Below are positions 35,903-57,536 of a stretch of 64,000 nucleotides of DNA, piece after piece. Location: IMG/VR virus record IMGVR_UViG_3300023179_000086, positions 9,400 through 73,399 of that record. One strand, 5' to 3'. The stretch's first letter is position 1; the number at the start of each line of letters is the position of its first letter. This stretch comes from a virus. Both the position numbers and the translations under genes were made by a program. The notes beneath the pieces are model-generated. The model was not told where the DNA came from and did not search any database. It worked only from the letters and a program-made list of their open reading frames with translations.

Positions 35903-36287
35903 AAATAAACCTAATCTAGAATTTGACATTATACGCACACCTTGGATGGTTGAAAAAATACAAAACAGCAAGGTGTATGCCCAAAATTTGTACGCAGCAA
36001 TATGTAATAATCGTTTTTTTAAATTAGATGATTCTTTTGCCATCATTAAAGATGAACAAAATTGGTCAGCATCTTGGAGATATGCAGGACAAATTGTTTC
36101 AAACTTAAGGATAGGAGAAGATTACCTTGATTATTATTGCAGTGGTATACATTGGCTAGATAATCATTCTAATATTTCATCTGCCTATACTACAGCAGTT
36201 AGTGGATTTGTTGAAGAAAGTATGGTAACCGATGAAATAAGAGATGATTTATTAAAATTAGGATGGATGGTAAAATCATATGATTAA
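35892..36287 (+). CDS. hypothetical phage protein
   Basis: YAQNLYAAICNN, WSASWR, YLDYYCSG. Confidence 0.8.
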   Translation: MDIKNKPNLEFDIIRTPWMVEKIQNSKVYAQNLYAAICNNRFFKLDDSFAIIKDEQNWSASWRYAGQIVSNLRIGEDYLDYYCSGIHWLDNHSNISSAYTTAVSGFVEESMVTDEIRDDLLKLGWMVKSYD

Positions 36288-37192
36288 AATAAATCATTAT
36301 AGTTTGTTGTACTTCCAATAATATTTCCAATTATATTTCCCCAAGATATTGAATTTTTAGTTTCGGGTAAAATATAAGATATAATTTTGTGTTTTTCATG
36401 ATTAAATATATAACTTGGCAAATTATCCCACCCATAACTTCTTGTTCTTAATTCAAATTTACCTAATCCTAAACTATTATAAATTTTTTGTTTCAGTACA
36501 GGAACTAGTGCATGCCCATTAAAATTATTAAAAAAATTATCTTTATGTGCATTTAAAAGTATAGAAACACTGTCTATACTATTACCTAACATGTTTCCAA
36601 TCCCATTTATACTCTTTTCTTTCATATATAAATCATAACATTGATAATCATATTTAAATGGACTTAATAAAGGTTTAGTAATCCAAGGCCATGGATAATC
36701 TCCTCCCAATATTGGATATGTATGACACTTTTCTATTAACCAAAAATGACTAGCCACATGAAATTGGTTAATTTTATATATTTTTAAATAATTTAGATAT
36801 TGAAAATTATTAAAAAACTTTTCAATATCTAAATCAAAAAAATATTGTTTTAAATGGTTTTCCCTACAAAATTTTTCACTATAATACAAATCAACTATAT
36901 TAATAGGATATCCATTTTTTATTAAACGAAGTGTAATTACACTAGTTGGTATTTTTTGTGTAATTAAAAACTTTAACACTAGTTCACTATCAAGTCCTCC
37001 ACTATATAATAATTCACAAGTTCCTCTATAGTCGCCTAAGTTTTTGTAAAATGCTTCAGTAATATTTTTAGATGTTATTTCTTGATCACGGATCTCGCAA
37101 TGATAAGTTGCTGAATGAGTTGAGTTATAGTAATTGTGTGTATGTTTACAAAATTCTCCAATACCACTAAACCAAATATTATTAGTATCCAT
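36284..37192 (-). CDS. asparagine-synthetase-like ATP pyrophosphatase
   Basis: PP-loop LLYSGGLDSE; start moved to MDTNNIW to avoid overlap. Confidence 0.75.
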   Translation of the reverse strand: MDTNNIWFSGIGEFCKHTHNYYNSTHSATYHCEIRDQEITSKNITEAFYKNLGDYRGTCELLYSGGLDSELVLKFLITQKIPTSVITLRLIKNGYPINIVDLYYSEKFCRENHLKQYFFDLDIEKFFNNFQYLNYLKIYKINQFHVASHFWLIEKCHTYPILGGDYPWPWITKPLLSPFKYDYQCYDLYMKEKSINGIGNMLGNSIDSVSILLNAHKDNFFNNFNGHALVPVLKQKIYNSLGLGKFELRTRSYGWDNLPSYIFNHEKHKIISYILPETKNSISWGNIIGNIIGSTTNYNDLF

Positions 37193-37211
37193 AAAATTAA
37201 TAAATATCTTA

Positions 37212-37823
37212 ATGATTATATTTACTCCAATTAATTTGCCTATAGTAAAACCTGATAGTTGGGATATATTTTGGAATATTTGGAATAAACACAGTCGAAT
37301 ATTAGTTAAAGAAAAAATTAATACTAAAACTACCCCTGCATTAGTAGGAACTAAAAATGTTTGGATTGGTTTAGATATTTTTAAAAAATTTGACATTCCT
37401 TTAGTATATTCAGCACCTTATTTTGATATAAAAGATTCTTTACCAAACCTATTTGAGTCATTAAATAATTTATGCACTAATTTACATACTATAAGATTAG
37501 TTCAAAGTATTACGGATTTTGTGGCACATACGGATGATGACTTAGATAAATGGAGTTTAAGAGCTTTTTTTCATGGGGAAAATGTTTCAGAACAATGGTA
37601 CTTTACAAAACCATACGATAGAAATGGGCAAAGATATTATATTGAAATGCCAAACGACACTAATTGGTTTATGTATAATGACAAATATTGTTGGCATGGG
37701 ACAGATTTTGATTCTACCCGAAAAAAAATAATACTTCAAGTATTTTGTTTTGGATCACCTAATGTTGATTATTTGACTTCAAGCATAGAAAAATATAAAT
37801 TATATACTATAAAATTTTTATGA
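37212..37823 (+). CDS. 2OG-Fe(II) oxygenase-like protein
   Basis: AHTD..WHG..RK iron-triad pattern; start moved to ATG 37212. Confidence 0.65.
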   Translation: MIIFTPINLPIVKPDSWDIFWNIWNKHSRILVKEKINTKTTPALVGTKNVWIGLDIFKKFDIPLVYSAPYFDIKDSLPNLFESLNNLCTNLHTIRLVQSITDFVAHTDDDLDKWSLRAFFHGENVSEQWYFTKPYDRNGQRYYIEMPNDTNWFMYNDKYCWHGTDFDSTRKKIILQVFCFGSPNVDYLTSSIEKYKLYTIKFL

Positions 37824-38578
37824 TTGTTGGATCTACTTCTACAAATATAGCTATTATTACAACATGCTCCGCAGTATTGTCAATATTAGGTTTTTTCCAC
37901 TTTAATTTTACTATTAGTAATTGTTTAATTTTTATTTTAAGTTTTTACGTTTTAAATATTTTAGGTAATTGGTTAATGTTACATCGTTACTATTCTCATA
38001 AATCTTTTGAATTTAAATACGATTTTATAAGAATAATTTTAACATTTTTCACTATTTTAAGTGCAAGAGGAAGTCCTATAGGTTGGGCATATATTCATAG
38101 GAAACACCATAGATTTAGTGATACAGAAAAAGATCCTCATAGTCCCCTACATTTAGGATTAAAATTGTTTGGTTTTCAACATTATAAAAGTATGGAATCA
38201 CAAAACATGGAACTATTTTTAGTTAAAGATTTAATGAATAAAGAACAAATTTTTATACATAAGTATTATGTATTGTTATTATTATTTTGTATTATACCTA
38301 TTAGCCTTTATAGTGTGGAATTATTTTATTTTTTATGGATACTACCAATTACCATTGTTCATTTAAGTCAAAATTTGTTTAATTATTTTGGACATACGTA
38401 TGGTTATAAAAATCATATTACTAACGATAATAGTAAAAACAATTTGTGGTTGTTTCCTTTACTATTAGGTGAAGCTTGGCATAATAATCACCATTATAAT
38501 CCAAAATTAAATACAACAAAATTTTTAAAATATGAGTTTGATCCATTAAATATTTTTATACGGTTAGTAAAAAAATGA
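37820..38578 (+). CDS. membrane fatty-acid desaturase (delta-9/OLE1-like) 1
   Basis: His boxes HRYYSH, HRKHH, HNNHH; DPHSP. Confidence 0.93.
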   Translation: MIVGSTSTNIAIITTCSAVLSILGFFHFNFTISNCLIFILSFYVLNILGNWLMLHRYYSHKSFEFKYDFIRIILTFFTILSARGSPIGWAYIHRKHHRFSDTEKDPHSPLHLGLKLFGFQHYKSMESQNMELFLVKDLMNKEQIFIHKYYVLLLLFCIIPISLYSVELFYFLWILPITIVHLSQNLFNYFGHTYGYKNHITNDNSKNNLWLFPLLLGEAWHNNHHYNPKLNTTKFLKYEFDPLNIFIRLVKK

Positions 38579-39090
38579 AAGAGTCTGATTTTTTTATAAA
38601 ATTAAATACAATGTCTAATATTACTGAAAATATTTTAAAAATAGTAAAATCATCTGATAATTCAATGTGGAAAGAATTATTTGGACTAACTATTTTTACT
38701 TTAGATATAGATCATTTTAAAAATGATAAAGAAATCTTTCAAGCTATTCAACATTTAGATTGTAAAACTAGGTTAAGCATTTTTAGAACTAATCCAAATA
38801 CTTGTTATGATTGGCATTTTGATAAAATAAGACATTCAGCTATAAACATGTTAATTGATGGATTTGATAGTTTTTGTGCATTTGGAGAATATTCTCTAGG
38901 AAATACGTATAAAAATATTTATAAATTACAATATGAACCAAATTATTACTATTTAATTAATGTAAAAAAAACACATTGTGTTTTTAATTTTTCCAATAAT
39001 ATGAGATATATTTTAAGTATTGGGATCCCAAATACAACTTATGAGGATTCAGTAAATTATTTTGTTGAAAAAAAACTAATTACTTTATGA
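38575..39090 (+). CDS. 2OG-Fe(II) oxygenase-like protein
   Basis: WHFD..THCVFN..RYILS. Confidence 0.7.
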   Translation: MKESDFFIKLNTMSNITENILKIVKSSDNSMWKELFGLTIFTLDIDHFKNDKEIFQAIQHLDCKTRLSIFRTNPNTCYDWHFDKIRHSAINMLIDGFDSFCAFGEYSLGNTYKNIYKLQYEPNYYYLINVKKTHCVFNFSNNMRYILSIGIPNTTYEDSVNYFVEKKLITL

Positions 39091-39671
39091 AAACTAGACA
39101 ATTATTAGGACCTGAAGACTTTGACAAGTTTAAATTATTATTAACATGTCATAAGAAAATTGGCGGCACACAAGCATTAAATATAGAAAGTTATGAATTA
39201 ATATATAGTAAATATTTTGACTTTAATGAAAACTATAAAATTTTTGGTTATTTTGAAAATAATATTTTAATTAGTTCAATAAGTTTAGCCTATAGAAATA
39301 ACAACACTAGGGGACGATATTGGATGATCTCAGGCTTATTTACTACTAAAAAATATAATATATTCTCTTTTAACAATCCTGAAATTGGATTATTAATTAA
39401 AAAAGCATTTGATATTGCGGAAGAAAATGCATACTATGAATACTATTATTGTATATCTGCACAAGTATCACGTGTATACGAAAGACAAATTGACAAAAAT
39501 AATTATATACCATTACAAAGATATGATAGAATTTCTCTAGATATTGTCCCAAAAAATACTGTACCATCTATAGACCTCTATTTTAAATTAATGGGCGGTA
39601 AAACAAAACCTCATGATATTATAATTAAAAAAAGAGTTTTACAAGAACAATTTCGTAAAAAAATTATTTAA
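39087..39671 (+). CDS. GNAT-like protein
   Basis: RQL..EDF, IFGYFENNILIS; similar to 43981..44604; fold tentative. Confidence 0.55.
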   Translation: MKTRQLLGPEDFDKFKLLLTCHKKIGGTQALNIESYELIYSKYFDFNENYKIFGYFENNILISSISLAYRNNNTRGRYWMISGLFTTKKYNIFSFNNPEIGLLIKKAFDIAEENAYYEYYYCISAQVSRVYERQIDKNNYIPLQRYDRISLDIVPKNTVPSIDLYFKLMGGKTKPHDIIIKKRVLQEQFRKKII

Positions 39672-39693
39672 TTTAGTAACAATAAATATTAAT

Positions 39694-40470
39694 ATGAAAA
39701 ACTTTTTTGCAAGCAGCACATTGGGTGCACAGATTTTTTTTGTAATTTCTTTAGTAAGTATTTTTTTTGCTACAATACTTTATGGATTTACAATAAAAGA
39801 ACTAGGATTAATAATCTTGGGTTATTTTTTGTATGGCTGTTTAGGAGTGGTAATTACCTTTCATCGATATCTAACTCATAATAGTTTTAAGACACATTCA
39901 TTTATTGTTAAATTATTTTCTATTTTAGGGTGTTTTTCGGGTACAGGAAGTCCTTTAGCGTGGGTGGCAATACATATAAATCATCATCTTAAAAGTGATA
40001 AACCTGATGACCCACATAGCCCATATTATAGGGGATTTAAAATTTTCACTTTGGATTATGTTGATAATGTTAACATAGATACAAAATGGCGTATGCGCTC
40101 TCTAGTAAAAGATAAATTTCAACAGTTTTTACATCGTTATTATTTTTTAATAAATTTAATTTATAGTATAGTATTGTTTATGTTGGGTGGGATGTACCTA
40201 GTTATATTTTTTCATTGGGCACCTGCAGCACTCACAGCAATTATGAGTAATGTAGTTAATTATTTCGGACACAAACCCAATTGGCTTGGGAGTTTTAGAA
40301 CATATAATATTAATGATCAAAGCGTAAATAGTTGGTTGTGGGCTATACCAAGTTGGGGAGAAGCATGGCATAATAATCATCATCGATTTCCTAAACGTAG
40401 TTATTTTGGAGAAAAATGGTATCAAGTAGATATATCAGGATTTTTAATTAAACTTATATCAATAAAATAA
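39694..40470 (+). CDS. membrane fatty-acid desaturase 2
   Basis: HRYLTH, HINHH, GEAWHNNHH. Confidence 0.93.
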   Translation: MKNFFASSTLGAQIFFVISLVSIFFATILYGFTIKELGLIILGYFLYGCLGVVITFHRYLTHNSFKTHSFIVKLFSILGCFSGTGSPLAWVAIHINHHLKSDKPDDPHSPYYRGFKIFTLDYVDNVNIDTKWRMRSLVKDKFQQFLHRYYFLINLIYSIVLFMLGGMYLVIFFHWAPAALTAIMSNVVNYFGHKPNWLGSFRTYNINDQSVNSWLWAIPSWGEAWHNNHHRFPKRSYFGEKWYQVDISGFLIKLISIK

Positions 40471-40476
40471 ACTTTT

Positions 40477-41283
40477 ATGTTTTTAGCTCACATTAACTCA
40501 GTAAAACCTAATTCATATTATGTATTAGATCAATTTAACAAAAAAAAAGTTCTTGTAAATTCAGATAAATTTAAATTAATTTCAAATATTTGTCCACATC
40601 AAAATAGTTTAATATCATCTACTGATGGATCAGGTATTAGAGTATGCCCGTATCATAATTGGTCTTTTACAATAGATGGACAATCTATATCTTCAGGTAG
40701 AACAGAATATTATTGCAAAAATAAAATTAACTTAAAAGAAGAAAACGTTTATTTATGGAATGGATTATTGTTAAGCTCAGATGTTGACTTTTACATTACT
40801 GAAAATTTTGACAATATGGTTTTGATAGAAAATCGAATTGATGTTGTAAAAGCTGATTATCGTATTATTATGGATTTATTTTTAGATGTTGATCACATTC
40901 CATCTGTGCATAAAGGGGTTTATGATAAAATTGGAATAACAAATTTAAATGTAATGTGGAGTTATTATAACAATGGCAATGTTCAAAAAGTGGATCGAAA
41001 TGCATTGTGGATTGCAATTTATCCATATACAATGATTGAATGGCAATACGGAGCATTATTCATTACCGTCGCTATCCCTAATGGAAATAAATCAAATGTC
41101 CATATATTTAAATATACAGATAAACAAAATATTGATAAATGGAAATTAAATGAAGATGTTTGGGAAACAGCTTGGTTGCAGGATAAAACACAAGCAGAAT
41201 TAATTACTGAATTTCCAAAACATAATCTAGAAACACAAAAAATACATTTTAGGAATTTTTTAAAAGAAAATGGAATTAATTAA
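40477..41283 (+). CDS. Rieske [2Fe-2S] oxygenase alpha-subunit-like protein
   Basis: CPHQ..CPYHNW Rieske motif; DVDHIPSVH and LQD mononuclear iron site. Confidence 0.88.
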   Translation: MFLAHINSVKPNSYYVLDQFNKKKVLVNSDKFKLISNICPHQNSLISSTDGSGIRVCPYHNWSFTIDGQSISSGRTEYYCKNKINLKEENVYLWNGLLLSSDVDFYITENFDNMVLIENRIDVVKADYRIIMDLFLDVDHIPSVHKGVYDKIGITNLNVMWSYYNNGNVQKVDRNALWIAIYPYTMIEWQYGALFITVAIPNGNKSNVHIFKYTDKQNIDKWKLNEDVWETAWLQDKTQAELITEFPKHNLETQKIHFRNFLKENGIN

Positions 41284-42181
41284 AAATAATTATTTGTATG
41301 GTACAGGAAATGGTACAACATGGCACGTTAATATTGATCCTCCTACACGCAAGGTAAAAACATATTTTGAAGAAACTTTAGAAGCTGTAAAATATGTTTA
41401 TGAAAATAAAACAGGTAAGTTTCAAGTTTTATTTAGTGGAGGACTTGACAGCCAATATGTATGCGAAGTATTACTATATTTGGGAATGGAATTTGAAATA
41501 ATAATTATTGAATTAAAAAATAATAAAAATGAAATTCTTAATATGCATGATATTAAATATGCATATGAATTTTGTAATTTTAAAAACATTACTCCAACCA
41601 TATACGATTTGAATTTTGAACAGTTTATCGATACAGATAAAAACATACAAATAGCAGAATCAGTTCAATGTTGTTCGATAGCCATCCCTGCGACAATGTA
41701 TGTAGCTGAAAAAATGGATGGTTTTACATTATTGGGCAATGATCCACCCTATATAAAATATGTACCTGAAAAAAATTATTGGGCATTACAAGAATTAGAA
41801 TATATTCATAGTTTATTACGATATTATGAAAAATTTAATTTAAATGGTTGTCCTTTTTTATTATCTTATACATCTGAAATGATGCTTTCTTTTTTAATTG
41901 ATCCAACAATTATGAAATTAGGAATGGGTATGATATTAGGTAAAACAGGTAGTAATTCAAGTAAATCGTATGTATTTAATAATGGATCAGGTTTTAATAT
42001 GCCTGGTTATGACTTTGTAACCAAATCACGTATAAAATATACAGGATATGAAGAAATTTATCAATCTAATCTAATGAATCATCCAAATTTGCAAATATTT
42101 AAACAATACAGAGAAAAGTGGAATGGAGAATATCTTGAAAATTTTTCAGATGTAATTAATAGATTATCGATAAATCAATAA
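41270..42181 (+). CDS. asparagine-synthetase-like ATP pyrophosphatase
   Basis: VLFSGGLDSQ PP-loop; KYTGYE near C-terminus. Confidence 0.75.
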   Translation: MELIKNNYLYGTGNGTTWHVNIDPPTRKVKTYFEETLEAVKYVYENKTGKFQVLFSGGLDSQYVCEVLLYLGMEFEIIIIELKNNKNEILNMHDIKYAYEFCNFKNITPTIYDLNFEQFIDTDKNIQIAESVQCCSIAIPATMYVAEKMDGFTLLGNDPPYIKYVPEKNYWALQELEYIHSLLRYYEKFNLNGCPFLLSYTSEMMLSFLIDPTIMKLGMGMILGKTGSNSSKSYVFNNGSGFNMPGYDFVTKSRIKYTGYEEIYQSNLMNHPNLQIFKQYREKWNGEYLENFSDVINRLSINQ

Positions 42182-43345
42182 TTAATTATTGATTTTTTTA
42201 AAATTTTCTACTTTTCCGATAAAGTAAGGTTTAATTTGTGTCATAAGACCTGTTTTACTTGAATTCAAGTATATTGAATCAATAGTTGAATAAAAATGTT
42301 TAGTATCAGATGTAATCATATCAAATACTCGTGTAGTGTTATGCAGATCATAAAACCATTGATCATGCTCTCCTAAAATTATTTTTGTTGGTTTTTCTGC
42401 TTGAAATATTTTAGTGTAAGTTGATGGATAAAGTATTGGAATAATGCTTCTTTCGTACTTACTATGTTTAATTCTTTTTTCTACATCGTTTAAAAATTTA
42501 TGATTTTCTGTATTAACCGTATATTTACTTACATCAGTTGTTTCATCTACTGCAGCACGTGCAACAGAATGAGCTTGTTTTATGAGCAAAGCTGTACAAG
42601 TTTTTGCCCAATAAAATGGAACATTGTTAACATTAGAATATTCTCGATCAAAAACGGGTCTTGCCACATTCAATGCCAAATCATTAAAAACCATATAAAC
42701 TGAATTATTATCAATAGCAATTTTTGGTTTGTCTATCCCATATACAAACCCAATTTTTAATCCTAAATCTGCTAATTTTACTAAATGTTTTTGTCGCTCT
42801 AATCTATATCTTGCAATTCCTGAAGGATGAACCCAATCTTCGCTTCTATATAGCCAATCGTCAGTTTTAAAATCTAAAATATCTTGAAAATAATCATGTA
42901 AAGTAATTTTTACTTTAGGATACTCTTTTTCGATTTGTTTAATAAAAGGAATTTGAGCATAATAAGTTTCACTCATAGTGTTTTTATGAGAAGTATCAGT
43001 ATTATTATGTTTAAAGTTGCTAAGACCACTTAACGGTGCTGAAGCAATAATTTCATCAATATGTATATTGTTTCTTAAAAAAGATAAAGCAACATTTCTA
43101 CTATCTGCGCCACCACTGCAAAATACTGCTAGATAATCATAGTTATCTCTAAGTTCTTTTGCTCGTTGCTCATATAATACATGTAGGGAAGTATCAGGTT
43201 CGATAGTCCAATTTACTTTAGAATATTCTTTATCATTAAAATACCATTCTATGTTATATTTATATGGATTTGCTGCAAGAACGGCATCTATTTTATGTAA
43301 AAAAAATTGATTATTTACTTTATAAAATGAATCGTTTTCAATCAT
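42182..43345 (-). CDS. asparagine-synthetase-like ATP pyrophosphatase
   Basis: RAKELRDNYDYLAVFCSGGADS, GIDKP, LIKQAH. Confidence 0.75.
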   Translation of the reverse strand: MIENDSFYKVNNQFFLHKIDAVLAANPYKYNIEWYFNDKEYSKVNWTIEPDTSLHVLYEQRAKELRDNYDYLAVFCSGGADSRNVALSFLRNNIHIDEIIASAPLSGLSNFKHNNTDTSHKNTMSETYYAQIPFIKQIEKEYPKVKITLHDYFQDILDFKTDDWLYRSEDWVHPSGIARYRLERQKHLVKLADLGLKIGFVYGIDKPKIAIDNNSVYMVFNDLALNVARPVFDREYSNVNNVPFYWAKTCTALLIKQAHSVARAAVDETTDVSKYTVNTENHKFLNDVEKRIKHSKYERSIIPILYPSTYTKIFQAEKPTKIILGEHDQWFYDLHNTTRVFDMITSDTKHFYSTIDSIYLNSSKTGLMTQIKPYFIGKVENFKKINN

Positions 43346-43352: not shown

Positions 43353-43979
43353 TTAAATATGTGTTCGTGATTTCATGGGATTATGTTCATCTCTTGGCCC
43401 ATCTTCACTATCGGGATGAAAAGCTACTAAACTCATATGGCTATTATTAGTTTTGAATCTATGTCTAGCATATCTATCTAAAATAAATACATCACCTTTT
43501 TCTAAATTGAATTTTTCATCTGTTGTTTCAGCAATACCACGTCCTGATGTAATAAATCCTATCCTTAAACTTGGATGTGTGTGAAAAGTTTGATTAATAT
43601 TTTTTGGGAAATATAAATAATTTAGACAAGGATCACCATTTCTAGGCGGACTTATAATATTACTGTTGCTACAACCATCAATATAAGATAAATTACCCAC
43701 TAAACTTGCATTTAAAATTGCCATATATTGTTCAGCAAAACAGAAACCTGGCATTTCGATGACCATTCCACCCGTAATATCATTAAGGTTAAATTCTTTT
43801 GTCGTTGTTACAGTAAATAATGAATTTTTAATATCAAAATCTTCGCTAATAAAACTTCCAAATCCTACAATAAATCTTGAATATCCGCAATCATAAAATC
43901 TTAGATTCTCACTCAATGGTATAAGATTTATTACAAAACGATCTCTTATTTGTATTGATGATTTTATTATTTGAAACAT
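43353..43979 (-). CDS. cupin-domain protein
   Basis: HTHPS.R.G..G.G, HRF.T, FHPDS. Confidence 0.8.
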   Translation of the reverse strand: MFQIIKSSIQIRDRFVINLIPLSENLRFYDCGYSRFIVGFGSFISEDFDIKNSLFTVTTTKEFNLNDITGGMVIEMPGFCFAEQYMAILNASLVGNLSYIDGCSNSNIISPPRNGDPCLNYLYFPKNINQTFHTHPSLRIGFITSGRGIAETTDEKFNLEKGDVFILDRYARHRFKTNNSHMSLVAFHPDSEDGPRDEHNPMKSRTHI

Positions 43980-49647: not shown

Positions 49648-50019
49648 TTATAAGTTATATAAATTTTTAGCCTCTTTATCAGTAATATTATAAATTTGAT
49701 ATATGAATTCAAATTTTTCAGGATGATTTTGAATACTTTTATTATCCTCATAAATTACGTCTAACTGAGTTTTACATTCTTGTGCAATCTCTTCCGACAC
49801 AAATACTCTTTCAGTAACTAAAAGATGACTAGCTAAATATCTTTTAAATGCTTTTTGCGTACCATTTACTACATACGAATTGCATATTTCCATATACTTT
49901 AAAATATTATTTGGTTTAAAAATGTAAGGAAACAGAGCGTGTAAAGTTTCATCTACGGTACCTCTAAGAAGACTGTGGTCATTTATAACAGTTGTTGTTT
50001 TATATACGCAATAACCCAT
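49648..50019 (-). CDS. hypothetical protein
   Basis: First gene of the minus-strand operon; ATG 50019. Confidence 0.65.
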   Translation of the reverse strand: MGYCVYKTTTVINDHSLLRGTVDETLHALFPYIFKPNNILKYMEICNSYVVNGTQKAFKRYLASHLLVTERVFVSEEIAQECKTQLDVIYEDNKSIQNHPEKFEFIYQIYNITDKEAKNLYNL

Positions 50020-50034
50020 AAAAAAATTCCTATA

Positions 50035-50073
50035 ATATATCAATATTTATTCTACCGATAAATATTGATATAT
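50035..50073. promoter_or_regulatory. back-to-back late promoters within a 16-bp inverted repeat
   Basis: ATATATCAATATTTAT-7 nt-ATAAATATTGATATAT between divergent genes. Confidence 0.6.
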
Positions 50074-50091
50074 TTATATTATAAAGTAAAG

Positions 50092-50868
50092 ATGTTTTAT
50101 TCAAACGTTAAAAGCATAAAAATATTACAGGTTTTAACTACCATTATTACCTGCGGTTTACTTTTTTTAAATTTTAGTTGGTATTGGTGGAGTATATCAA
50201 TTTTTGTGTATTTTTTAACAGGTTGTTTAGGTATTACTATAACATATCATCGATATCTTTCTCATAAAGCATTTAAAATGCCCAAAATATTAGAATATAT
50301 TTTTAGTTTTTTTGGTGCTATTGGTGGTACAGGGTCAACTATTGGATGGTTAGCAGTTCATAATGTTCATCACAAATATAGTGATAAAGATAAAGACCCA
50401 CACAGTCCACATATCCTAGGTTTGAGATTAATGCTTACAAACTATAATTACAAATTTAACCCACTTGATGCTAAAGTATTGCTAAGAGATAAATTTCACA
50501 TTTTCTTACACCAATATTATAATCTAATATTAATAACATGGGCAATCTTATTAATATTAATAGATATAAAAATTTTTCTATTTGTATTCGTTGTACCAAT
50601 TTTTTTACAGATTTGGGCAAGTAACATAAGCAATTATGCTAATCATTTGTATGGGTATAAGAATTTCGAAACAACCGAAGGCAGTAAAAATACATGGTGG
50701 GTAAGCGCAATTACTTGGGGAGAAGGATGGCATAATAATCATCATGCAGAACCATGGTCGTATACTTTTCAAAAAAAATGGTGGGAAATTGATATAAGTG
50801 GGTATATAATATATATAATGGTTTTACTGACGGGTAACAAAGCTAGCTTATATAATTCTAAATATTAG
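50092..50868 (+). CDS. membrane fatty-acid desaturase 6
   Basis: HRYLSH, HNVHH, GEGWHNNHH; ATG 50092. Confidence 0.93.
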   Translation: MFYSNVKSIKILQVLTTIITCGLLFLNFSWYWWSISIFVYFLTGCLGITITYHRYLSHKAFKMPKILEYIFSFFGAIGGTGSTIGWLAVHNVHHKYSDKDKDPHSPHILGLRLMLTNYNYKFNPLDAKVLLRDKFHIFLHQYYNLILITWAILLILIDIKIFLFVFVVPIFLQIWASNISNYANHLYGYKNFETTEGSKNTWWVSAITWGEGWHNNHHAEPWSYTFQKKWWEIDISGYIIYIMVLLTGNKASLYNSKY

Positions 50869-51635
50869 TTATATTTTATAACTTTAATTACTAAACCACT
50901 AATATCTATTTCATACCATTTTTCACCATAATACCAACGTTTAGGATAACGATGATGATTATTGTGCCATGATTCGCCCCAACTTGGTATAGCCCATACC
51001 CAATTATTAGCACTCCTATCGTTTAAATTATATCGTCTTGATCCACCAAACCAATTGGGCATATGACCTGAAAAGTTAACTATGTTACTCATAAACACCG
51101 AGAGTACAACAGGTGCCCAATGTAGAAATATCATTAAATACCATCCACCGATTAAGTATAATAACCCACTCCAACTAAGTAATATCAAAACATAATAACG
51201 ATGTAAAAAACGATGGTAAGGATCTGATATTAATTCACGCATGCGCCATTTTACAGAATGGTCCATGGGGTAACGATGAAAAAACAATTTCCAACCATAA
51301 ACGTATGGTGTATGTGGATCATCTTCTTTATCACTTCGTAAATGATGTTTTAAATGTATACTTACCCATACTATACTACTGCCTGTACCTGCCAAACATC
51401 CAAATAATGTGAATAATTTTATAATCCATGGATGTGTGTTATATGCTTTATGTGTGTGAAAACGATGAAATGCTACTACAATACCCAAACAAACGTATAT
51501 AAAGTAACCTAATATAGTTAATCCTACTGTTTGCCATGTAACGCCATAGGTATAAAATGCCCATATACTAGCTACACAACTTGTTGCAAGTAGTGCTTGT
51601 GTAAAATTGTTATTGCTGACATACCATTTTTGCAT
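50865..51635 (-). CDS. membrane fatty-acid desaturase 7
   Basis: HRFHTH, HLKHH, GESWHNNHH; ATG 51635 follows AATAAATA. Confidence 0.93.
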   Translation of the reverse strand: MQKWYVSNNNFTQALLATSCVASIWAFYTYGVTWQTVGLTILGYFIYVCLGIVVAFHRFHTHKAYNTHPWIIKLFTLFGCLAGTGSSIVWVSIHLKHHLRSDKEDDPHTPYVYGWKLFFHRYPMDHSVKWRMRELISDPYHRFLHRYYVLILLSWSGLLYLIGGWYLMIFLHWAPVVLSVFMSNIVNFSGHMPNWFGGSRRYNLNDRSANNWVWAIPSWGESWHNNHHRYPKRWYYGEKWYEIDISGLVIKVIKYN

Positions 51636-51643
51636 GTTAGTAT

Positions 51644-52264
51644 TTATTGCTGTTCTTCCACCCATCTAATACTATTCCAATCAGGTTCATAACTCTCATC
51701 TATTTTATGATAGACAACATATTGCTTAGTGTTATTAATCTTAAGTGGATAATCAACATGAAATTGACCATTGTAAAACAAGCTATTTACATTGCGTTTT
51801 TTCTGTATGCCTAAACCACTCCGTTTAAAATAAGGTATAAGTCGTTTATTATATTCATTAAATGTTAAACACAATGTCTTATAATTTCTTTGTTTTGCCC
51901 ACGCTAGTTGTAGTGGACATAGATGCCGACCAACTAAAAACTGTCCACGATATGATTTATTGACCCAAGTTCTTACACCACCAAGTGCAACATAAGGATC
52001 AAAATCTGATTTGTTTACCCCACTAATGGCAATCATTTCACCAAACTTTAATAAAGCAAATACATCACCATTATCTTGCTTAAATCGATTGCTATGATAA
52101 ATTAAGTACGGTAAGGTTGATGGGTTATTTCCCCAATCATCATCCCACATATTTATATGGCTTGGTTCATCCTTTTCTTGAAATGCATCAAAACAAAATT
52201 TAAGAATAAAATTTTTATGATCAACATGAAAATTATTGTCAAATATACTTAAAGTAGTAAGCAT
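51644..52264 (-). CDS. GNAT-like acyltransferase
   Basis: IAISG, RTWVNKSYRGQ (motif A-like), LTFNEYN. Confidence 0.7.
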   Translation of the reverse strand: MLTTLSIFDNNFHVDHKNFILKFCFDAFQEKDEPSHINMWDDDWGNNPSTLPYLIYHSNRFKQDNGDVFALLKFGEMIAISGVNKSDFDPYVALGGVRTWVNKSYRGQFLVGRHLCPLQLAWAKQRNYKTLCLTFNEYNKRLIPYFKRSGLGIQKKRNVNSLFYNGQFHVDYPLKINNTKQYVVYHKIDESYEPDWNSIRWVEEQQ

Positions 52265-53019
52265 TATTTTTTAAGAAGTTTAATAATATTACCTGCAATA
52301 TCATATTCCCATGGCTGAACAGTTGTGGTATAGTTAGTACTGTTATGATGGTGATTATTATGCCAACCTTCCCCCCATAAAAACAAATTTAATAACCAAC
52401 TATTTGTACTATTGTCATTAGTTTCAAATGATTTATAACCATTACTATGAGGAACTAAAATAAATGCGGCTGCAGCAAAATGCGTTAAAATAACAGGGAT
52501 TGCATAAAAATATATCATTGTTTTAATACTTATTATACTAAGTAAAGTTACCCATATTAAAATTATTAATACGTAATAATCATTTATAAAAACATGTTTT
52601 TTAGTTAACAGATCCTTTATATATTTTTTTTGTATAGTTTCTCCAAAATTTATCATGATAGGCATTAAAACTTTTAATCCAACATTTTTTGGATTATGTG
52701 GATCATTAATAGTATCTGATTGTTTATGATGTAAACGGTGAATATAACTCCATCCTAATGGACTCCCACGAACTGATAATATAGCCACGATAGTAAAAAA
52801 ATGTTTTAATAAATTTGTTTTAAAAACAAAACTACGATGTGCATAGTAACGATGTAAACCAATTACAAACCCCAAACAACTGAAAATAAAATAACCTATA
52901 ATAATATTAAGTATATCAATTGTTGTTATATCATATGTAACCAATCCATAGATACTTAATAATAAAAAGGAACCATGTAAGATTGATAAATTTAATCCTG
53001 TTGGACGCAAATAATTCAT
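52264..53019 (-). CDS. membrane fatty-acid desaturase 8
   Basis: HRYYAH, HRLHH, GEGWHNNHH. Confidence 0.93.
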   Translation of the reverse strand: MNYLRPTGLNLSILHGSFLLLSIYGLVTYDITTIDILNIIIGYFIFSCLGFVIGLHRYYAHRSFVFKTNLLKHFFTIVAILSVRGSPLGWSYIHRLHHKQSDTINDPHNPKNVGLKVLMPIMINFGETIQKKYIKDLLTKKHVFINDYYVLIILIWVTLLSIISIKTMIYFYAIPVILTHFAAAAFILVPHSNGYKSFETNDNSTNSWLLNLFLWGEGWHNNHHHNSTNYTTTVQPWEYDIAGNIIKLLKK

Positions 53020-53022
53020 AAT

Positions 53023-53043
53023 AATATTTAGGTCCTAAATATT
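53023..53043. promoter_or_regulatory. palindromic divergent late-promoter pair
   Basis: AATATTTAGG-T-CCTAAATATT; TAAATA on each strand. Confidence 0.6.
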
Positions 53044-53048
53044 TCAAT

Positions 53049-54515
53049 ATGCAAATAATACTTTTTACAGACGTAGCAGACACTATTGGTTATGGAAAAT
53101 ATGCAGGTACATACAAATTAGCTACAGAATTACGATTACACAGCTACACTTGTCAAGTTATTGATGTGTTTTCTTATTATTCATGGGCACAACTTACATC
53201 TTTAGCAACCAAATTTATAACAAAAGATACTGTATTGGTTGGATTTAGTTGTACGCTAAGCGAAAAAAGAATACATGGTAAAGTATATAACTTTGGAATG
53301 GAGGATCAACGATTTGTAGATTTCCTTACTTATATAAAACAAATTAATCAAAATGTTCGTGTGGCCTTAGGTGGTGCAAGAATGAATAATATATGCCATT
53401 GGCAAGGTGTAGATTATGTTGTATTAAATAAAGCAGATCGAGCAATTATCGCTATTGTTGAACATCTTTTATACAAAAAAGAATTAATTACTCATCGTCA
53501 AAGTCCATCGTTTCTTGTAGATGGTAACGACTACCCATATAACCAAGAAGATTTTAGTCGTAGCCAAATTATTTTTGAACCTAATGATATCATTTTTCAA
53601 AACGAAGCACTTCCTATTGAAGTTAGTCGTGGTTGTATCTTTCAATGCGCATTCTGTAGATACGATCACATCGGTAAAAAAATTGGAGAATGGCAAAAAA
53701 CTGCGGATACTTTACGCAACGAATTTCTTCGCAACTATGAATTATATGGTACAACGAATTACATGTTTAGTGATGAGTTAATTAATGAAAGTTTAGACAA
53801 GATGAATTTTTTGTGTGAAGTAGTGAGTAGTTTACCATTTAAGTTGCAGTATACGAGTTACGCTAGGATTGATTTAATATGGCGATACCCTCAAATGCGT
53901 GAATTATTGTTAGAAAGTGGTGCTATTAGTTTGCAATTTGGTATAGAAACATTGAATGAATCAGTAGGAAAAAAGATTGGTAAAGGATTAGCTACACAAA
54001 AAATTAAAGATACTTTAAGTTATTGTGGTGAATTATGGAAAGATAAAATTATTATGGCAAGCAATTTTATTGTAGGGTTACCCAACGAAACTGAAGAAAG
54101 TATTTGGAATACAGTAAATTATTTAGTAAGTGACGAATGTAAATTAGATATATTTGGATTTCTGCCATTGGCAATAAAAGTAGAAGATGATGGTAGAAAA
54201 TCAAGTAAAATAGATCGAGATCCAAAAAATTTTGGATATACTATTGTTGCAACAAATGATTGGGATAATGGGCACATGAAATATGAAGATGCTAAAAAAT
54301 TAGTACACAGAATTTGGAGAGATCCAAGAGTTCAAAAAAAAGCTAAATTTGGGGCAGCAACTTGGATTGGGAGAATTATTAATCTAGGATATTCATTAGA
54401 GGAAATTTTTATCTTATTAAATGGAAATCTTACTCAACATGAACTATCAACTTTTTTTAAAGACAAAACACTTTCAAAAAAATTAGAATATTATAACAAA
54501 TTAATGGAATTATAA
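53049..54515 (+). CDS. B12-binding radical SAM protein
   Basis: EVSRGCIFQCAFC, FGIET, FIVGLPNET; N-terminal VGFS..LGG cobalamin-binding-like domain. Confidence 0.88.
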   Translation: MQIILFTDVADTIGYGKYAGTYKLATELRLHSYTCQVIDVFSYYSWAQLTSLATKFITKDTVLVGFSCTLSEKRIHGKVYNFGMEDQRFVDFLTYIKQINQNVRVALGGARMNNICHWQGVDYVVLNKADRAIIAIVEHLLYKKELITHRQSPSFLVDGNDYPYNQEDFSRSQIIFEPNDIIFQNEALPIEVSRGCIFQCAFCRYDHIGKKIGEWQKTADTLRNEFLRNYELYGTTNYMFSDELINESLDKMNFLCEVVSSLPFKLQYTSYARIDLIWRYPQMRELLLESGAISLQFGIETLNESVGKKIGKGLATQKIKDTLSYCGELWKDKIIMASNFIVGLPNETEESIWNTVNYLVSDECKLDIFGFLPLAIKVEDDGRKSSKIDRDPKNFGYTIVATNDWDNGHMKYEDAKKLVHRIWRDPRVQKKAKFGAATWIGRIINLGYSLEEIFILLNGNLTQHELSTFFKDKTLSKKLEYYNKLMEL

Positions 54516-55372
54516 TGATACAAGAAAATAAACTCATTGGTTTTAGTAATGCGGAAACAACTTATTTTGCATACGAATCATTGCCATTGTGCGGCATTGG
54601 TATAAACAAACATCCAATTATTTCAATGGATCCATATATTGATATTTCAAAAAATATTGAATTGCATAGTGAATGTTGTCGTGGATTGGCACAAATTGAA
54701 ACATTTAAAATGGCGATGTTTCCTGGCACGGTTCATGCTTCGGAAAGTAAATTAGGAAAAATAAATTTTACTGAAATGCTTTATGATTTACAAAAATATG
54801 ACGAAACAGGATTACATAAAGAAAACTTATTATGGTTAGATAAAAATAGTTCTGATCCAAAAAGAGCAATGTACAAATATATGTACTACGCAATGGGAGC
54901 AAATATTCCATGGTTTTTTGCTTATTACCTGCGTAATCAACATTTTTTGGAAAAATTAACCGAACCCGACAAATTATGGACGGATGAAGCTAAAAAATTA
55001 TTTCCTAATTTAATAAAATATATCAGTACATTGCCTTTTAAAACAATTGGCAGGGTATTATTTTTTACTACTTATCCAAATGCAGGGGTTACTGCACATC
55101 GTGATTTGTACGTCACCCCACATAAAGATCAAAACATTAATTTATTTTTTGCAGGTGGTTGGAGACCAAGTTTTGTATGGGATGATAGTATTAATCAAAA
55201 AATTTATTTACCTCAAGGTGCAACAAGTTACTTCTTTAATAATCGTGATTATCATGGTGTTGATCCTGAACCTAAATTTAGATACACATTACGTATTGAT
55301 GGAGTATTTGAAGATTGGCTACAAGATGAATTAGGTATGGTAGATGGATATGTTTGGAATGGTTATTTGTAA
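54515..55372 (+). CDS. 2OG-Fe(II) oxygenase-like protein
   Basis: AHRD..YHGV..YTLRIDG. Confidence 0.65.
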   Translation: MIQENKLIGFSNAETTYFAYESLPLCGIGINKHPIISMDPYIDISKNIELHSECCRGLAQIETFKMAMFPGTVHASESKLGKINFTEMLYDLQKYDETGLHKENLLWLDKNSSDPKRAMYKYMYYAMGANIPWFFAYYLRNQHFLEKLTEPDKLWTDEAKKLFPNLIKYISTLPFKTIGRVLFFTTYPNAGVTAHRDLYVTPHKDQNINLFFAGGWRPSFVWDDSINQKIYLPQGATSYFFNNRDYHGVDPEPKFRYTLRIDGVFEDWLQDELGMVDGYVWNGYL

Positions 55373-55926
55373 CCAATCATCATATAACGCTCATAATATT
55401 TACCATTTTTGTTAAGTTGTATTGGTTTTATACCAAACATGCAAATTTGACTTAAAATAAATTTATTTTTAAATTCATTTATTGAGGATGTTGGTTGTTT
55501 TACTAACCATGGTTCTTCCTTGTTGGTTATATTTGTTGTTTGTAAACACACTAAAGTACCATTTGGTATGGAATCAAACCAACTATTATCAGAAAAATGT
55601 TCAAAACTACAATTTATTACAATTTGTGGTGGATCACTCCAATCTAATTTATTTGCATCTGCAAAAATATTATTTACAGTTATCGGATTATATACTGTAA
55701 AAGCTTCACAAATCTTTTCACTTATATTAATAGATAAATTATCAAAGTCATATCCAACAATTAACTTATAAAAATCAGGTTTACGAACATGTAACATAAA
55801 GCCAAGAACATTATACCAACTACCAAGAATCCATATTGTAGATTGATATTTGGCATAACGTTCTAATTCTTCACATAGCCATATTTTACTTAATATTTGT
55901 CCGTGACTAAACGCATCAAAATTCAT
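55363..55926 (-). CDS. class I SAM-dependent methyltransferase-like protein
   Basis: SKIWLCEEL, ILGSWY, GYDFD, INCSFEH, RYMMIG. Confidence 0.7.
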   Translation of the reverse strand: MNFDAFSHGQILSKIWLCEELERYAKYQSTIWILGSWYNVLGFMLHVRKPDFYKLIVGYDFDNLSINISEKICEAFTVYNPITVNNIFADANKLDWSDPPQIVINCSFEHFSDNSWFDSIPNGTLVCLQTTNITNKEEPWLVKQPTSSINEFKNKFILSQICMFGIKPIQLNKNGKYYERYMMIGYK

Positions 55927-55965
55927 GAAATTATTTACAGAATTAGATACAGTGTAAATAAATTC

Positions 55966-56820
55966 ATGAATACTAAAATTTTAATAATGGGCTTGCCTGG
56001 CTCTGGAAAAACATATCTTGCTGAACGGTTGAAGGCATATTTAGAAATACCCCGTTCAGTTACCGAAATGCCAATTAGCAAATTAGCAAACTATGAAGTT
56101 GCACCTATGAATTGGTACCCATCCGTAAAATGGTTTAACGCAGATGATATTCGTAAACGTTATAATGATTGGGATTTTAGTACAGAAGGGCGTATTCGGC
56201 AATCATTAAGAATGGCTGACTTTGCATTGAATAGTGGAAGTGATTATGTAATATGTGATTTTGTTGCACCATTAGTAGAAATGCGTAATAATTTTAAAGC
56301 TGATTGGACAATATGGATGGATACTATTGATGCAGGACGTTTTGAAGATACTAATAAAGCTTTTATTCCACCTGACGTATATGATTTTAGAATCACAGAA
56401 AAAAATGCTGATTTTTGGGCAAAATTTATTGGTAAACATATTATAGAAGACAAACGTAGACCTAAATTTGATTGGCGTAAAGAAACAGTACAAATGCTAG
56501 GCAGATGGCAACCTTGGCATGCAGGTCATCGTGCTTTATTCGAACGTTTACTAACACGTACAGGACAGGTTATTATTCAGATACGTGATGTACAAGGTTG
56601 GCAAGGCAGCAATCCATTTACATTTGATCAAGTCAAAAATTTTATTAAAAAAGATTTAGATCCATTTTACCAAGGACAATATGAAATTATGTTAGTTCCA
56701 AACATTGTACATATTGGTTGGGGTCGTGGTGTAGGATATACAAGCGGTGAAGAAACATTTGAAGAACATATTACCAATATTAGCGCAACTCAAATTAGAA
56801 AGGAAATGGGTCTTCAATGA
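55966..56820 (+). CDS. cysC: adenylylsulfate-kinase-like domain fused to HxGH nucleotidyltransferase
   Basis: GLPGSGKT, NADDIR, DFSTEGR, DFVAP; then GRWQPWHAGH..ISATQIR. Confidence 0.75.
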   Translation: MNTKILIMGLPGSGKTYLAERLKAYLEIPRSVTEMPISKLANYEVAPMNWYPSVKWFNADDIRKRYNDWDFSTEGRIRQSLRMADFALNSGSDYVICDFVAPLVEMRNNFKADWTIWMDTIDAGRFEDTNKAFIPPDVYDFRITEKNADFWAKFIGKHIIEDKRRPKFDWRKETVQMLGRWQPWHAGHRALFERLLTRTGQVIIQIRDVQGWQGSNPFTFDQVKNFIKKDLDPFYQGQYEIMLVPNIVHIGWGRGVGYTSGEETFEEHITNISATQIRKEMGLQ

Positions 56821-57536
56821 CCTACAAAAAAACATGTATTATTTGTACGCCGAGATCAGGTAGTCAATTATGTGAAAAATTAATTCAACAAATATCACCT
56901 AATACTGTTTTGTTAGGTGAATATTTCGAAAAATGGAATCAAAATAATTATGAAATAGAACAAAATAATATTAAAAAAATTATACACATTAGCAAAAAAA
57001 CAGGTTTTAGTATTGATCCAACATATTCTCAACGATTAAATTTACTACGTGATTTAGAGCAATCACTTACGATAAGATTATTTTATTTGTATGGGTACGA
57101 ACCATTTAAAATAAAAACAATTATAGAAACTTTACATCAATTTGGATTTGAATTTATAATACTGTCAAGAAATAATAAAAAAGAACAATTATTAAGTTGG
57201 TTAATAGCTAAAGCTCATAGTGATTTTTATAAAGATAATAAAATTTTTGTAATCAATAATGTATTACAATGTAAAGTAAAAATATATTTAGATAACTATA
57301 AAAACATCGTAAATCAATTTATTTTTACATATAGGTATTGGGATAAAAATATTACACAATTATTCAAAAAAATAAATTATCATAGCATTGTATATGAATC
57401 TATTTTTAATGATTTACAAAAAGCTTATCAGTTTGAATTTATGCCTATTGGTGCTAAAACCATTAATGGTAATCATTTAGATTATGTTGAGAACCACAAC
57501 GAAGTAAGTGATTATTTAGATAAATTACTTATTTGA
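56817..57536 (+). CDS. sulfotransferase (Stf0-like)
   Basis: TPRSGSQ PAPS loop, LGEYF, LSR..QLLSW, YE. Confidence 0.75.
   Translation: MTYKKTCIICTPRSGSQLCEKLIQQISPNTVLLGEYFEKWNQNNYEIEQNNIKKIIHISKKTGFSIDPTYSQRLNLLRDLEQSLTIRLFYLYGYEPFKIKTIIETLHQFGFEFIILSRNNKKEQLLSWLIAKAHSDFYKDNKIFVINNVLQCKVKIYLDNYKNIVNQFIFTYRYWDKNITQLFKKINYHSIVYESIFNDLQKAYQFEFMPIGAKTINGNHLDYVENHNEVSDYLDKLLI

Follow-up and report, generated by a model that had tools for sequence, protein, structure and literature searches.

Phage-encoded desaturases have been described as single genes in cyanophages (vFAD), which were shown in yeast to encode delta-9 lipid desaturases (Roitman et al. 2017, PMC5776448). Other phages are known for arrays of oxygenases: cyanophage Syn9 carries 10 tandem dioxygenases whose role was only predicted, and related bacterial dioxygenase operons also encode acetyltransferases, PAPS synthetases and sulfotransferases; either secondary-metabolite synthesis or modification of a tail-collar protein was predicted (Iyer et al. 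2010, PMC2938197). In freshwater pelagimyophages, fabF, a stearoyl-CoA desaturase, speH and a 2OGFeDO protein were reported, and a hypervariable island of pelagimyophages, also called the host recognition cluster, contains radical S-adenosylmethionine (SAM) cassettes together with genes for an Asp/Asn beta-hydroxylase, TauD, a methylase and an N-acetyltransferase (Zaragoza-Solas et al. 2020, PMC7029224). Two co-isolated Prochlorococcus phages encode Asn beta-hydroxylases and also an acyl carrier protein (ACP) with its synthetase (PMC3037559). These four papers are cited here and below from parts of their text. Here, we analyzed a stretch of viral DNA of 64,000 nucleotides ("the window"), corresponding to bases 9400-73399 of the 73,399-base IMG/VR virus record IMGVR_UViG_3300023179_000086 (CheckV completeness 12%), and more particularly the densely packed open reading frames (ORFs) found on both strands between positions 36284 and 57536, which include eight desaturase genes and which a previous sequence-only reading had interpreted as an acyl-tailoring island. 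A search of full-text literature, which left aside the possibly relevant supplements of the papers cited here, returned no paper on multi-desaturase phage islands or on the GNAT-desaturase-PP-loop cassette described below.

Eight divergent desaturases in a phage-borne island

All eight proteins that had been proposed to be desaturases scored above the Pfam FA_desaturase (PF00487) cut-off (52.3-65.3 bits, compared to 29.7), and a family search of the whole record detected the same eight and no others. Each contains the three boxes HRxxxH, HxxHH and HNNHH, and an Asn and a fourth His are conserved as well, with H62, R63, H67, H99, H102, H103, H194, N209, H223, H226 and H227 being invariant across the eight copies. 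Their profile matched the structure of mouse SCD1 (4YMK, 7.8e-32) with the His residues aligned, so that the eight intact three-His-box desaturases of the sequence-only reading were all recovered. A simple and rather crude hydropathy scan also found two hydrophobic double-helix regions (about residues 5-65 and 145-190) in every one of them, corresponding to four transmembrane helices in two pairs. Since the metal-binding His residues were retained in 124-127 of 127 distinct phage desaturases, these enzymes are probably active, as far as can be judged from their sequences.

The eight window desaturases share only 28-54% pairwise identity, and a maximum-likelihood tree of the 127 distinct phage desaturases placed them in at least four supported subfamilies, each of which has orthologues with similar neighbors in other contigs. 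Being spread over at least four old subfamilies, they are not recent duplicates, nor are they plain redundant copies. Designating genes by their first coordinate, subfamily A (37820 and 52264) usually adjoins a GNAT-fold family that we call GN1, subfamily C consists of 39694 and 50865, a B-like group contains 50065, and subfamily D (45945, 47344 and 48868) sits in a block with a ketosynthase gene. To our knowledge, SCD-type desaturases use only fatty-acyl chains as substrates, and eight old paralogues are easier to explain by differing positions or substrates than by dosage. When GenBank phages were searched by tblastn with a window desaturase, only three records were matched: one pelagiphage and two Acinetobacter phage records.

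The genes flanking the island encode helicases, a primase, a DnaB-like helicase, both subunits of a ribonucleotide reductase and a SleB-type cell-wall hydrolase. The nearest relatives of the DnaB-like protein belong to jumbo phages of 285-470 kb (47% identity); the source is an uncultured low-GC phage, of jumbo type as judged from this resemblance of its replication genes, and a near-identity DNA search against GenBank phages gave no match. The island has a GC content of 27.8%, compared to 31.7% for its flanks, and its tetranucleotide signature correlates with that of the flanks with an r of 0.75, compared to 0.91 between two flank pieces. This lower GC content and this deviating signature fit a mobile accessory region.

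Gene modules that recur in related viral loci

The region between 36284 and 57536 is a genuine accessory island of hypervariable type, built from three gene modules that are also found in other phages (Table 1). Module 1 (36284-43345) contains genes for a PP-loop protein, a 2-oxoglutarate (2OG) oxygenase-like protein, a subfamily-A desaturase, a second 2OG-like protein, a GNAT, a subfamily-C desaturase, a Rieske protein, another PP-loop protein and a PP-loop-motif protein. Module 2 (43353-50043) contains genes for a cupin, a GNAT and a KAS-II-like synthase, followed by three subfamily-D desaturase genes alternating with two oxygenase-like genes; its ketosynthase block is common to two other loci (L001 and L002) at 41-66% protein identity. 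Module 3 (50065-55926) has desaturases of subfamilies B, C and A around GN1 and ends with genes for a radical SAM enzyme of putative B12 type, a 2OG-like protein and a SAM-transferase-like protein. Considering the subfamily orthologues and the shared block, the window looks like two diverged GNAT/desaturase/PP-loop cassettes to which a ketosynthase module was added.

This recurrence was found by scanning IMG/VR with an alignment of the eight desaturases, which detected at least 588 viral stretches encoding relatives. The best 80 were used: all ORFs of these 80 loci and of the window were translated and clustered by all-against-all blastp. Counting within about 10 kb on either side of the match, 44 of the 80 loci had a single desaturase, 28 had two, four had three, two had four, one had five and one had eight, so that 36 loci contained 2-8 desaturases. 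The partner families were counted without a control set anchored on an unrelated gene, over loci that had been selected by similarity to one desaturase and that include near-duplicates (for example L017, L018 and L019). On these terms, GN1 was present in 41 of the 80 loci and located at most three genes away from a desaturase in 37 of them; the corresponding numbers were 33 and 17 for the PP-loop family PPa, 31 and 23 for an AspH-like family (family 3), 15 and 15 for the family O48, 13 and 12 for the B12 radical SAM family, 11 and 9 for the PP-loop-motif family PPb, and 7 and 7 for the Rieske family. The Rieske gene adjoined PPa in the window and in all seven loci that have it, and the order GN1-desaturase-desaturase-PPa(-Rieske), with overlaps of 1-4 nt, was repeated in L032, L035, L044, L045 and L065 with different flanks. 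The enzymes of the island therefore do co-occur across genomes, as the sequence-only reading required, with GN1, PPa, Rieske and AspH-type genes recurring beside desaturases.

Other contigs also share the position of the island. In L030, a 49-kb record, the same left-hand genes are followed by an island of its own with eight desaturases at the same genomic position, the order at the junction being the 909-aa protein family, the SleB-like hydrolase and the o358 family, followed by PP-loop, GNAT and desaturase genes. In L032, L039, L066, L068 and L078, an island with two desaturases is found at this position. The o358 gene, whose family matched nothing in Pfam or PHROGs, is preceded by the 909-aa protein and the SleB-like hydrolase in the window, L030, L032, L066 and L068. 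On the other side, nine tRNA genes (Met, Cys, Trp, Arg, Ser, Asn, Thr, Ala and Pro) are found amid small ORFs directly past the island (57574-63829). With the same junction and position in independent contigs, and with phage genes and tRNAs on its flanks, the island is phage-borne, in agreement with the sequence-only reading.

Five related records, three of which are 92-95% complete (335-345 kb), were also searched and contained 5, 8, 5, 2 and 2 desaturase-matched stretches; in one of them (G003), two of the stretches lie in one frame, giving four genes. G003 is a near-complete phage of 345 kb in which the gene for a 79-aa ACP overlaps the 3' end of a gene for a 259-aa His-rich protein (L085, 9497-10512). 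Two further observations were made in the 80 loci. The first 6 kb of L005-L008 and L016 contain three to four paralogous 404-aa SPASM-domain radical SAM proteins in runs, which stand, together with another radical SAM family, upstream of a GN1-desaturase-B12 radical SAM cassette. Two to four tandem copies of a family of about 100 aa (family 6) are located downstream of PPa/PPb in L032, L039, L066, L069 and L078, and in some loci a longer C-terminal part is joined to it. Family 6 was considered as a set of precursor peptides and this idea was dropped, the sequences being, by eye only, unlike precursors.

Table 1. Genes of the island and its two borders, with the evidence for each assignment. 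Loci are the 80 viral loci described in the text
Position	Strand	Assignment	Evidence and remarks
35892..36287	+	o358-family conserved protein	Left island border; family in 13 of 80 loci, at most three genes from a desaturase in 6
36284..37192	-	PP-loop ATPase, paralogue of 41270	YSGGLDSE motif; same blastp family
37212..37823	+	2OG-oxygenase-like (HxD...H...K)	hhalign 55.9% to AspH-like family
37820..38578	+	Desaturase, subfamily A (GNAT-adjacent type)	PF00487 9e-14; clade A in tree
38575..39090	+	2OG-oxygenase-like (O38 family)	hhalign 85.6% to AspH-like family
39087..39671	+	GNAT-fold protein, second family	hhalign 98.3% to 43981 family
39694..40470	+	Desaturase, subfamily C	PF00487 6.5e-17; 53.5% identity to 50865; tree
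40477..41283	+	Compact Rieske non-haem iron oxygenase	PF00355 9.2e-9
41270..42181	+	PP-loop ATPase (PPa family)	Family profile against PDB
42182..43345	-	387-aa PP-loop-motif protein (PPb family)	S77, G78, G79, D81, S82 invariant in 12 of 12
43353..43979	-	Cupin	Cupin_2 1.8e-7; family in 6 of 80 loci
43981..44604	-	GNAT-fold protein, second family	Overlaps ketosynthase gene by 14 nt
44591..45805	-	KAS-II-like beta-ketoacyl synthase	Pfam N- and C-terminal KS domains
45945..46760	-	Desaturase, subfamily D	PF00487 1.3e-17; L001 orthologue
46757..47347	-	Protein with HTD...H...R motif	2OG-like by motif only; 4-member family including L001, L002, L073
47344..48111	-	Desaturase, subfamily D	PF00487 3.5e-16; 50.2% identity to 48868
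48111..48887	-	AspH-type 2OG oxygenase	hhalign 99.1%, E 1.9e-18, to Asp_Arg_Hydrox family
48868..49644	-	Desaturase, subfamily D	PF00487 9.5e-18
49648..50043	-	Small protein shared with L001 and L002	Family of 3; 41-42% identity to those copies
50065..50868	+	Desaturase, subfamily B-like	PF00487 2.4e-17; 79% identity to L001/L002 orthologues
50865..51665	-	Desaturase, subfamily C	PF00487 6.4e-14
51644..52264	-	Phage-specific GNAT (GN1)	GNAT fold by model; most constant desaturase partner
52264..53019	-	Desaturase, subfamily A	PF00487 4.2e-15; clade A
53049..54515	+	Radical SAM enzyme, probably B12-type (class B)	Radical_SAM 9.4e-13; CxxxCxxC
54515..55372	+	2OG-oxygenase-like (O54 family)	hhalign 52.9%
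55363..55926	-	Class I SAM-dependent-transferase-like protein	Family in 21 of 80 loci
55897..56820	+	P-loop kinase fused to HxGH NMNAT-like nucleotidyltransferase	phrog_10255 'kinase' 8.2e-44
56817..57536	+	Claimed sulfotransferase	No family assigned
57574..57652	+	tRNA-Met	ARAGORN; right island border, first of 9 tRNA genes

Enzymes encoded beside the desaturases

The ketosynthase aligned over its full length with the FabF structure 1OX0 (7.1e-48) with the Cys/His/His triad conserved, as expected for the FabF-type enzyme claimed earlier. It scored below the cut-off of the FabF equivalog TIGR03150 (247.7 compared to 493.75 bits), shares about 29% identity with bacterial FabF, and belongs to a metagenomic lineage of its own (36-73% identity), with ordinary FabF proteins coming next at about 31-35%. 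On its sequence, it is best called KAS-II-like rather than a FabF equivalog, and a scan of viral contigs with this protein alone found no relative. The cupin was recognized by Pfam as previously proposed, and the small protein encoded next to the last subfamily-D desaturase gene (49648) gave no family match. The Rieske oxygenase is supported by its Pfam match and by both motifs read in its sequence (CxH...CxxH and DxxxDxxHxxxxH); C39, H41, C57 and H60 are invariant in seven sequences, and 517 metagenomic homologues were found. The radical SAM assignment of 53049 also holds. Its B12 label comes from NCBIfam matches that are all below cut-off (the best being the PhpK family at 2e-19, a ladderane-lipid B12 radical SAM family and HpnJ), those to B12-binding families spanning residues from about 92-107 onward, and no Pfam B12-binding domain was listed for this protein.

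The five proteins that had been described as 2OG-Fe(II)-like all carry the metal motif, and the additional support for them is uneven. For 48111, the profile comparison with the Asp_Arg_Hydrox family was strong, and PF05118 was matched by 10 of the 13 members of its family, but not by the window member alone. The profile comparisons were weak for 38575, 54515 and 37212, in whose families four residues are invariant (H81, D83, H134 and R144 in nine sequences; H195, D197, H247 and R260 in seven; H106, D108, H162 and K172 in nine, respectively), and the 37212 and 38575 families showed no detectable mutual relationship (hhalign 0.15%). For 46757, hhalign gave no support to a 2OG assignment (1.5% and 0.3%), leaving its motif. 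Since homologues align from residue 27, the ORF opening at 37134 most likely starts at 37212, and the divergent gene 36284 most likely starts at 37192 rather than at 37396. These likely starts are 19 bp apart, leaving little room for two promoters between 37192 and 37212. A scan for promoters and terminators was uninformative (156 promoter-like sites compared to 156.7 expected, and two terminator-like sites compared to 4.9 expected).

Three ATP-pyrophosphatases with an SGGxDS motif and no glutaminase domain had been proposed, and indeed no Pfam match of any kind, including to a glutaminase domain, was found for the three PP-loop proteins. The profile of the PPa family (41270 and 36284, which share 25.7% identity over 113 aa, E 1.5e-10) matched NAD synthetase (1.4e-6), TtuA (2.7e-4), TilS and QueC among PDB structures, and S56, G57 and G58 are invariant in 30 sequences, with D60 and S61 near-invariant. 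PPb is linked to this group by its invariant motif and by an hhalign comparison with PPa (93.6% over 53 columns) only, as it gave no Pfam family (none of 12 members below E 0.01) and no credible PDB match. The ESM Atlas clusters nearest to PPa are 85-98% viral; in one near cluster, 14% of the members have Asn_synthase and 14% have QueC. For the amide-forming role previously borrowed from AsnB-like enzymes, these comparisons gave no clear backing: the PP-loop proteins come closer to NAD synthetase, TtuA, TilS and QueC than to asparagine synthetase, which was absent from the 23 rows of the PPa comparison with PDB.

The GNAT-like character of three proteins was confirmed by two structural models and by the hhalign relationship of 43981 with 39087. 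The GN1 model (predicted local distance difference test, pLDDT, of 84) gave a Foldseek match at 5.7e-8 and a VIA Z of 13.1 (root-mean-square deviation of 2.8 over 141 residues), and the model of the 43981 family (pLDDT 86.5) matched GNAT acetyltransferases at 1.8e-8. The two families had no detectable relationship by hhalign (6.0% and 0.3%). GN1 has 140 metagenomic homologues, of which the 120 listed are all unnamed or 'hypothetical' except for one GNAT acetyltransferase, and it gave no match in GenBank phages. Both models matched ordinary acetyl-CoA N-acetyltransferases (for example PaiA, SpeG, RimI and Naa), and no long-chain acyltransferase, including those of the OlsB, FeeM and LuxI types, was seen among the fold-match rows shown. 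Two other loci encode a fusion of a 39087-type GNAT (N-terminal) and a 37212-type 2OG-like protein (C-terminal), whose genes are separate in the window (L069, 8790-9965, 391 aa; L078, 8770-9966, 398 aa).

At the right end of the island, the label 'methyltransferase' for 55363 could be kept as a weak class I SAM-transferase match: its family profile found spermidine synthases as best solved relatives (2.5e-4), ahead of methyltransferases (0.05), and the protein itself matched nothing in Pfam or PHROGs. The 'APS-kinase fusion' 55897 is better described as a phrog_10255 kinase with an NMNAT-like C-terminus (NMN adenylyltransferase, 1.3e-6), as APS_kinase matched at only 3e-4, with no stretch passing alone. 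The 'sulfotransferase' 56817 found no support, with nothing better than an E of 0.08 in Pfam, NCBIfam, PHROGs or PDB. As 55897 and 56817 have no relatives in the 80 loci, nothing ties these two genes to the island. Further right, an ORF of 258 aa (62507-63283, + strand) with an N-terminal GxxGxxG and a YxxxK motif looks by eye like an NAD-dependent sugar epimerase/dehydratase. An ORF for a SpeH-type AdoMet decarboxylase (59934-60290, + strand) is found among the tRNA genes, 4 kb to the right of the island; it was recognized by Pfam in the search of the record (PF02675, 1.6e-16, 56.7 bits, domain at 59955-60278), gave no match in PDB, and may connect with the spermidine-synthase-like matches of the 55363 family.

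Possible functions of the island and comparison with known systems

Considering the constant oxygenase neighbors, the condensing enzyme encoded among three desaturases and the eight old desaturase paralogues, we tentatively favor the reading that the island is a modular acyl/lipid-tailoring system working during infection, a plausible reading that may nevertheless well be wrong. The AspH-type oxygenase family includes the acyl-chain hydroxylases LpxO and OlsC. In such a system, the desaturase paralogues would introduce double bonds at different positions or into different host acyl substrates (acyl-CoA, acyl-ACP or membrane lipid), chain extension by the ketosynthase would draw on host ACP and malonyl-ACP, hydroxylation would fall to the AspH-type, 2OG and Rieske oxygenases, and the GNAT and PP-loop enzymes would change the amine or carboxyl part of the same molecule. 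Starting from the folds, catalytic residues, recurrence, adjacency and single domain fusion that were observed, we infer these substrates, this order of steps and any product.

Several observations weigh against this acyl-tailoring reading. The sequence-only reading had noted that neither an ACP nor an acyl-AMP ligase is visible in the window, and the same was true of the whole 73-kb record, in which ACP (PF00550) and AMP-binding ligase (PF00501) families gave no match at E<=1. Fer2 ferredoxin and rubredoxin were also absent from the record, in a search that did not include cytochrome b5, and no thioesterase was seen among the Pfam matches. With ACP, ligase, ferredoxin and rubredoxin all missing from the record, such a system would depend on carriers and reductants of the host. 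An ACP and an AMP-binding enzyme were found in just one of the five related records, G003, where they lie about 100 kb from each other and far away from the desaturases; a ketosynthase was likewise found in a single record, G001. Acyl tailoring is weakest in the part that it gives to the GNAT and PP-loop enzymes: the GNAT models are like ordinary acetyltransferases, with no long-chain enzyme among the rows shown, and the nearest solved PP-loop relatives act mostly on nucleotides or tRNA. In addition, the partner counts are not independent, having been made over 80 loci that were picked as best matches to a single desaturase and some of which are near-duplicates. Short overlaps are common in phages whatever the function, and adjacency could also reflect cassettes moving as blocks. 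The content of the island also varies from one to eight desaturases among related phages, as expected of a loose hyperplastic region. The earlier proposal that acyl chains are built and then attached by GNAT and AsnB-like enzymes found no backing, given acetyltransferase-like GNATs and no ACP or ligase. We consider unlikely a more specific scheme for uncultured aquatic phages, this one above all, with a complete pathway of several steps, in which the viral ketosynthase, regiospecifically different SCD-type desaturases and oxygenases would make polyunsaturated or oxygenated chains that the GNAT and PP-loop enzymes would turn into amide-type lipids; if it were true, such a virus-made class of lipids would reshape the host envelope, or serve as a signal or toxin, in the course of infection.

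The island may instead be a loose set of independent auxiliary genes in a hyperplastic region, where each desaturase would separately tune membrane fluidity and the other enzymes would have unrelated jobs, grouped where the phage tolerates insertions. This alternative, a serious one even if we think it rather unlikely, would account for the varying number of desaturases, for modules shuffled between contigs and for the deviating GC content and tetranucleotide signature of the island, and it has precedents in pelagimyophages and cyanomyophages, for which hypervariable islands containing radical SAM cassettes and numerous 2OG oxygenases have been described (PMC7029224, PMC3037559). It accommodates less easily that desaturases keep GN1, PPa, Rieske and AspH-type genes as neighbors despite different flanks and only 20-40% protein identity, that a GNAT/2OG-like fusion exists, and that eight divergent paralogues with orthologues elsewhere are hard to fit to one fluidity function.

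It also seems improbable that the oxygenases, radical SAM enzyme, GNAT, PP-loop proteins and transferase modify a protein or peptide (a tail fiber, another virion protein or a ribosomal peptide), with the desaturases having a separate lipid function. AspH-family enzymes are classically protein hydroxylases, the GNAT models resemble protein and amine acetyltransferases, SPASM-type radical SAM genes are multi-copy in L005-L008, and the cassette is directly beside tail-fiber genes in many related loci and in phage Mosig. In addition, Iyer et al. (2010, PMC2938197) predicted tail-collar protein hydroxylation and sulfation by related bacterial operons. However, none of the flanking ORFs tested beside the window island was recognized as a tail-fiber or structural gene, no precursor peptide could be proposed (family 6 being, by eye, unlike one), and it is the desaturases that are the most constant and the most amplified in these loci.

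An amine- or polyamine-centered small-molecule pathway, in which the SAM decarboxylase and the aminopropyltransferase-like protein 55363 would make an amine for acylation or amidation by the GNAT and PP-loop enzymes, and the desaturases would shape the acyl partner to give an N-acyl amine, appears more doubtful still. The AdoMet decarboxylase gene is 4 kb away, the best solved relatives of the 55363 family are spermidine synthases, both GNAT models have the polyamine acetyltransferases SpeG and PaiA among their top structural matches, and speH was reported from freshwater pelagimyophages alongside fabF and a stearoyl-CoA desaturase (PMC7029224). Nevertheless, Pfam Spermine_synth finds nothing in the record, the SpeG-type matches may merely reflect the abundance of such structures in PDB, and the 55363 family is at most three genes from a desaturase in only 2 of the 21 loci having it. 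As for the decarboxylase, speH is a common stand-alone phage gene. Finally, that the island is host DNA misassembled onto phage DNA is hardly credible even if its composition is somewhat unlike that of its flanks, considering the left junction and eight desaturases of L030, the five more contigs with two desaturases at the same position, GN1, PPa and the KAS lineage, so far recorded solely on metagenomic contigs no longer than about 360 kb, and the tRNA and phage-type genes past the island.

Turning to bacterial systems, the tailoring of lipid A and ornithine lipids uses the AspH-family acyl hydroxylases LpxO and OlsC, the N-acyltransferase OlsB, the di-iron hydroxylase OlsE and the methyltransferase OlsG. 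The window likewise encodes an AspH-family oxygenase, His-box di-iron membrane enzymes, acyltransferase-fold proteins and a SAM-dependent transferase, a likeness that is a functional analogy only, and, unlike in ornithine-lipid tailoring, no OlsB-type match was seen among the GN1 fold rows shown. Bacterial polyyne and polyene clusters combine an acyl-AMP ligase, an ACP, two or three desaturases and a thioesterase. The island shares with them several clustered membrane desaturases, which in these clusters act in series on one acyl chain, but its record is without ligase or ACP, with no thioesterase among the Pfam matches, and its desaturases are short and SCD-type.

Until now, phage desaturases have been regarded as lone genes for fluidity, and no chemistry has been assigned since 2010 to the oxygenase arrays found in marine phages. 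The island and its recurrent GNAT-desaturase-desaturase-PP-loop cassette provide a defined and testable gene set, for which the cultured Pelagibacter phage Mosig is a relative with a minimal hydroxylase-desaturase pair: in its locus (L088, MT647606.1, 52771-67334), Asp_Arg_Hydrox adjoins FA_desaturase, and several families are shared with L012-L025, L047 and L071, but without GN1. The Mosig island also has three radical SAM ('MoaA-like'), TauD, methylase, N-acetyltransferase, nitroreductase, FMN reductase and aminotransferase genes, beside tail-fiber genes. If the genes of such islands act together, phages of abundant aquatic bacteria would alter host lipids to a much greater extent than is currently supposed, which, if true, would bear on membrane biology, superinfection and marine lipid biomarkers.

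Among phages, the pelagimyophages are T4-like, of about 140 kb, with one desaturase beside tail-fiber genes (PMC7029224), whereas the replication genes of the window phage are jumbo-like. Like the Syn9 arrays, the island is a dense phage set of unrelated Fe/2OG oxygenases; unlike in the island, no membrane desaturase, ketosynthase, PP-loop or Rieske protein is mentioned for them in the part of that article cited here (PMC2938197). Like vFAD, the closest single-gene precedent, the window desaturases are phage-borne, three-His-box membrane enzymes of the delta-9 (DesC/SCD) type, read as auxiliary genes acting on host acyl chains. Unlike vFAD, which is a single gene of T4-like cyanophages (PMC5776448), the window has eight divergent paralogues from at least four subfamilies in a jumbo-type phage, accompanied by a ketosynthase and by GNAT, PP-loop and oxygenase genes as constant partners.

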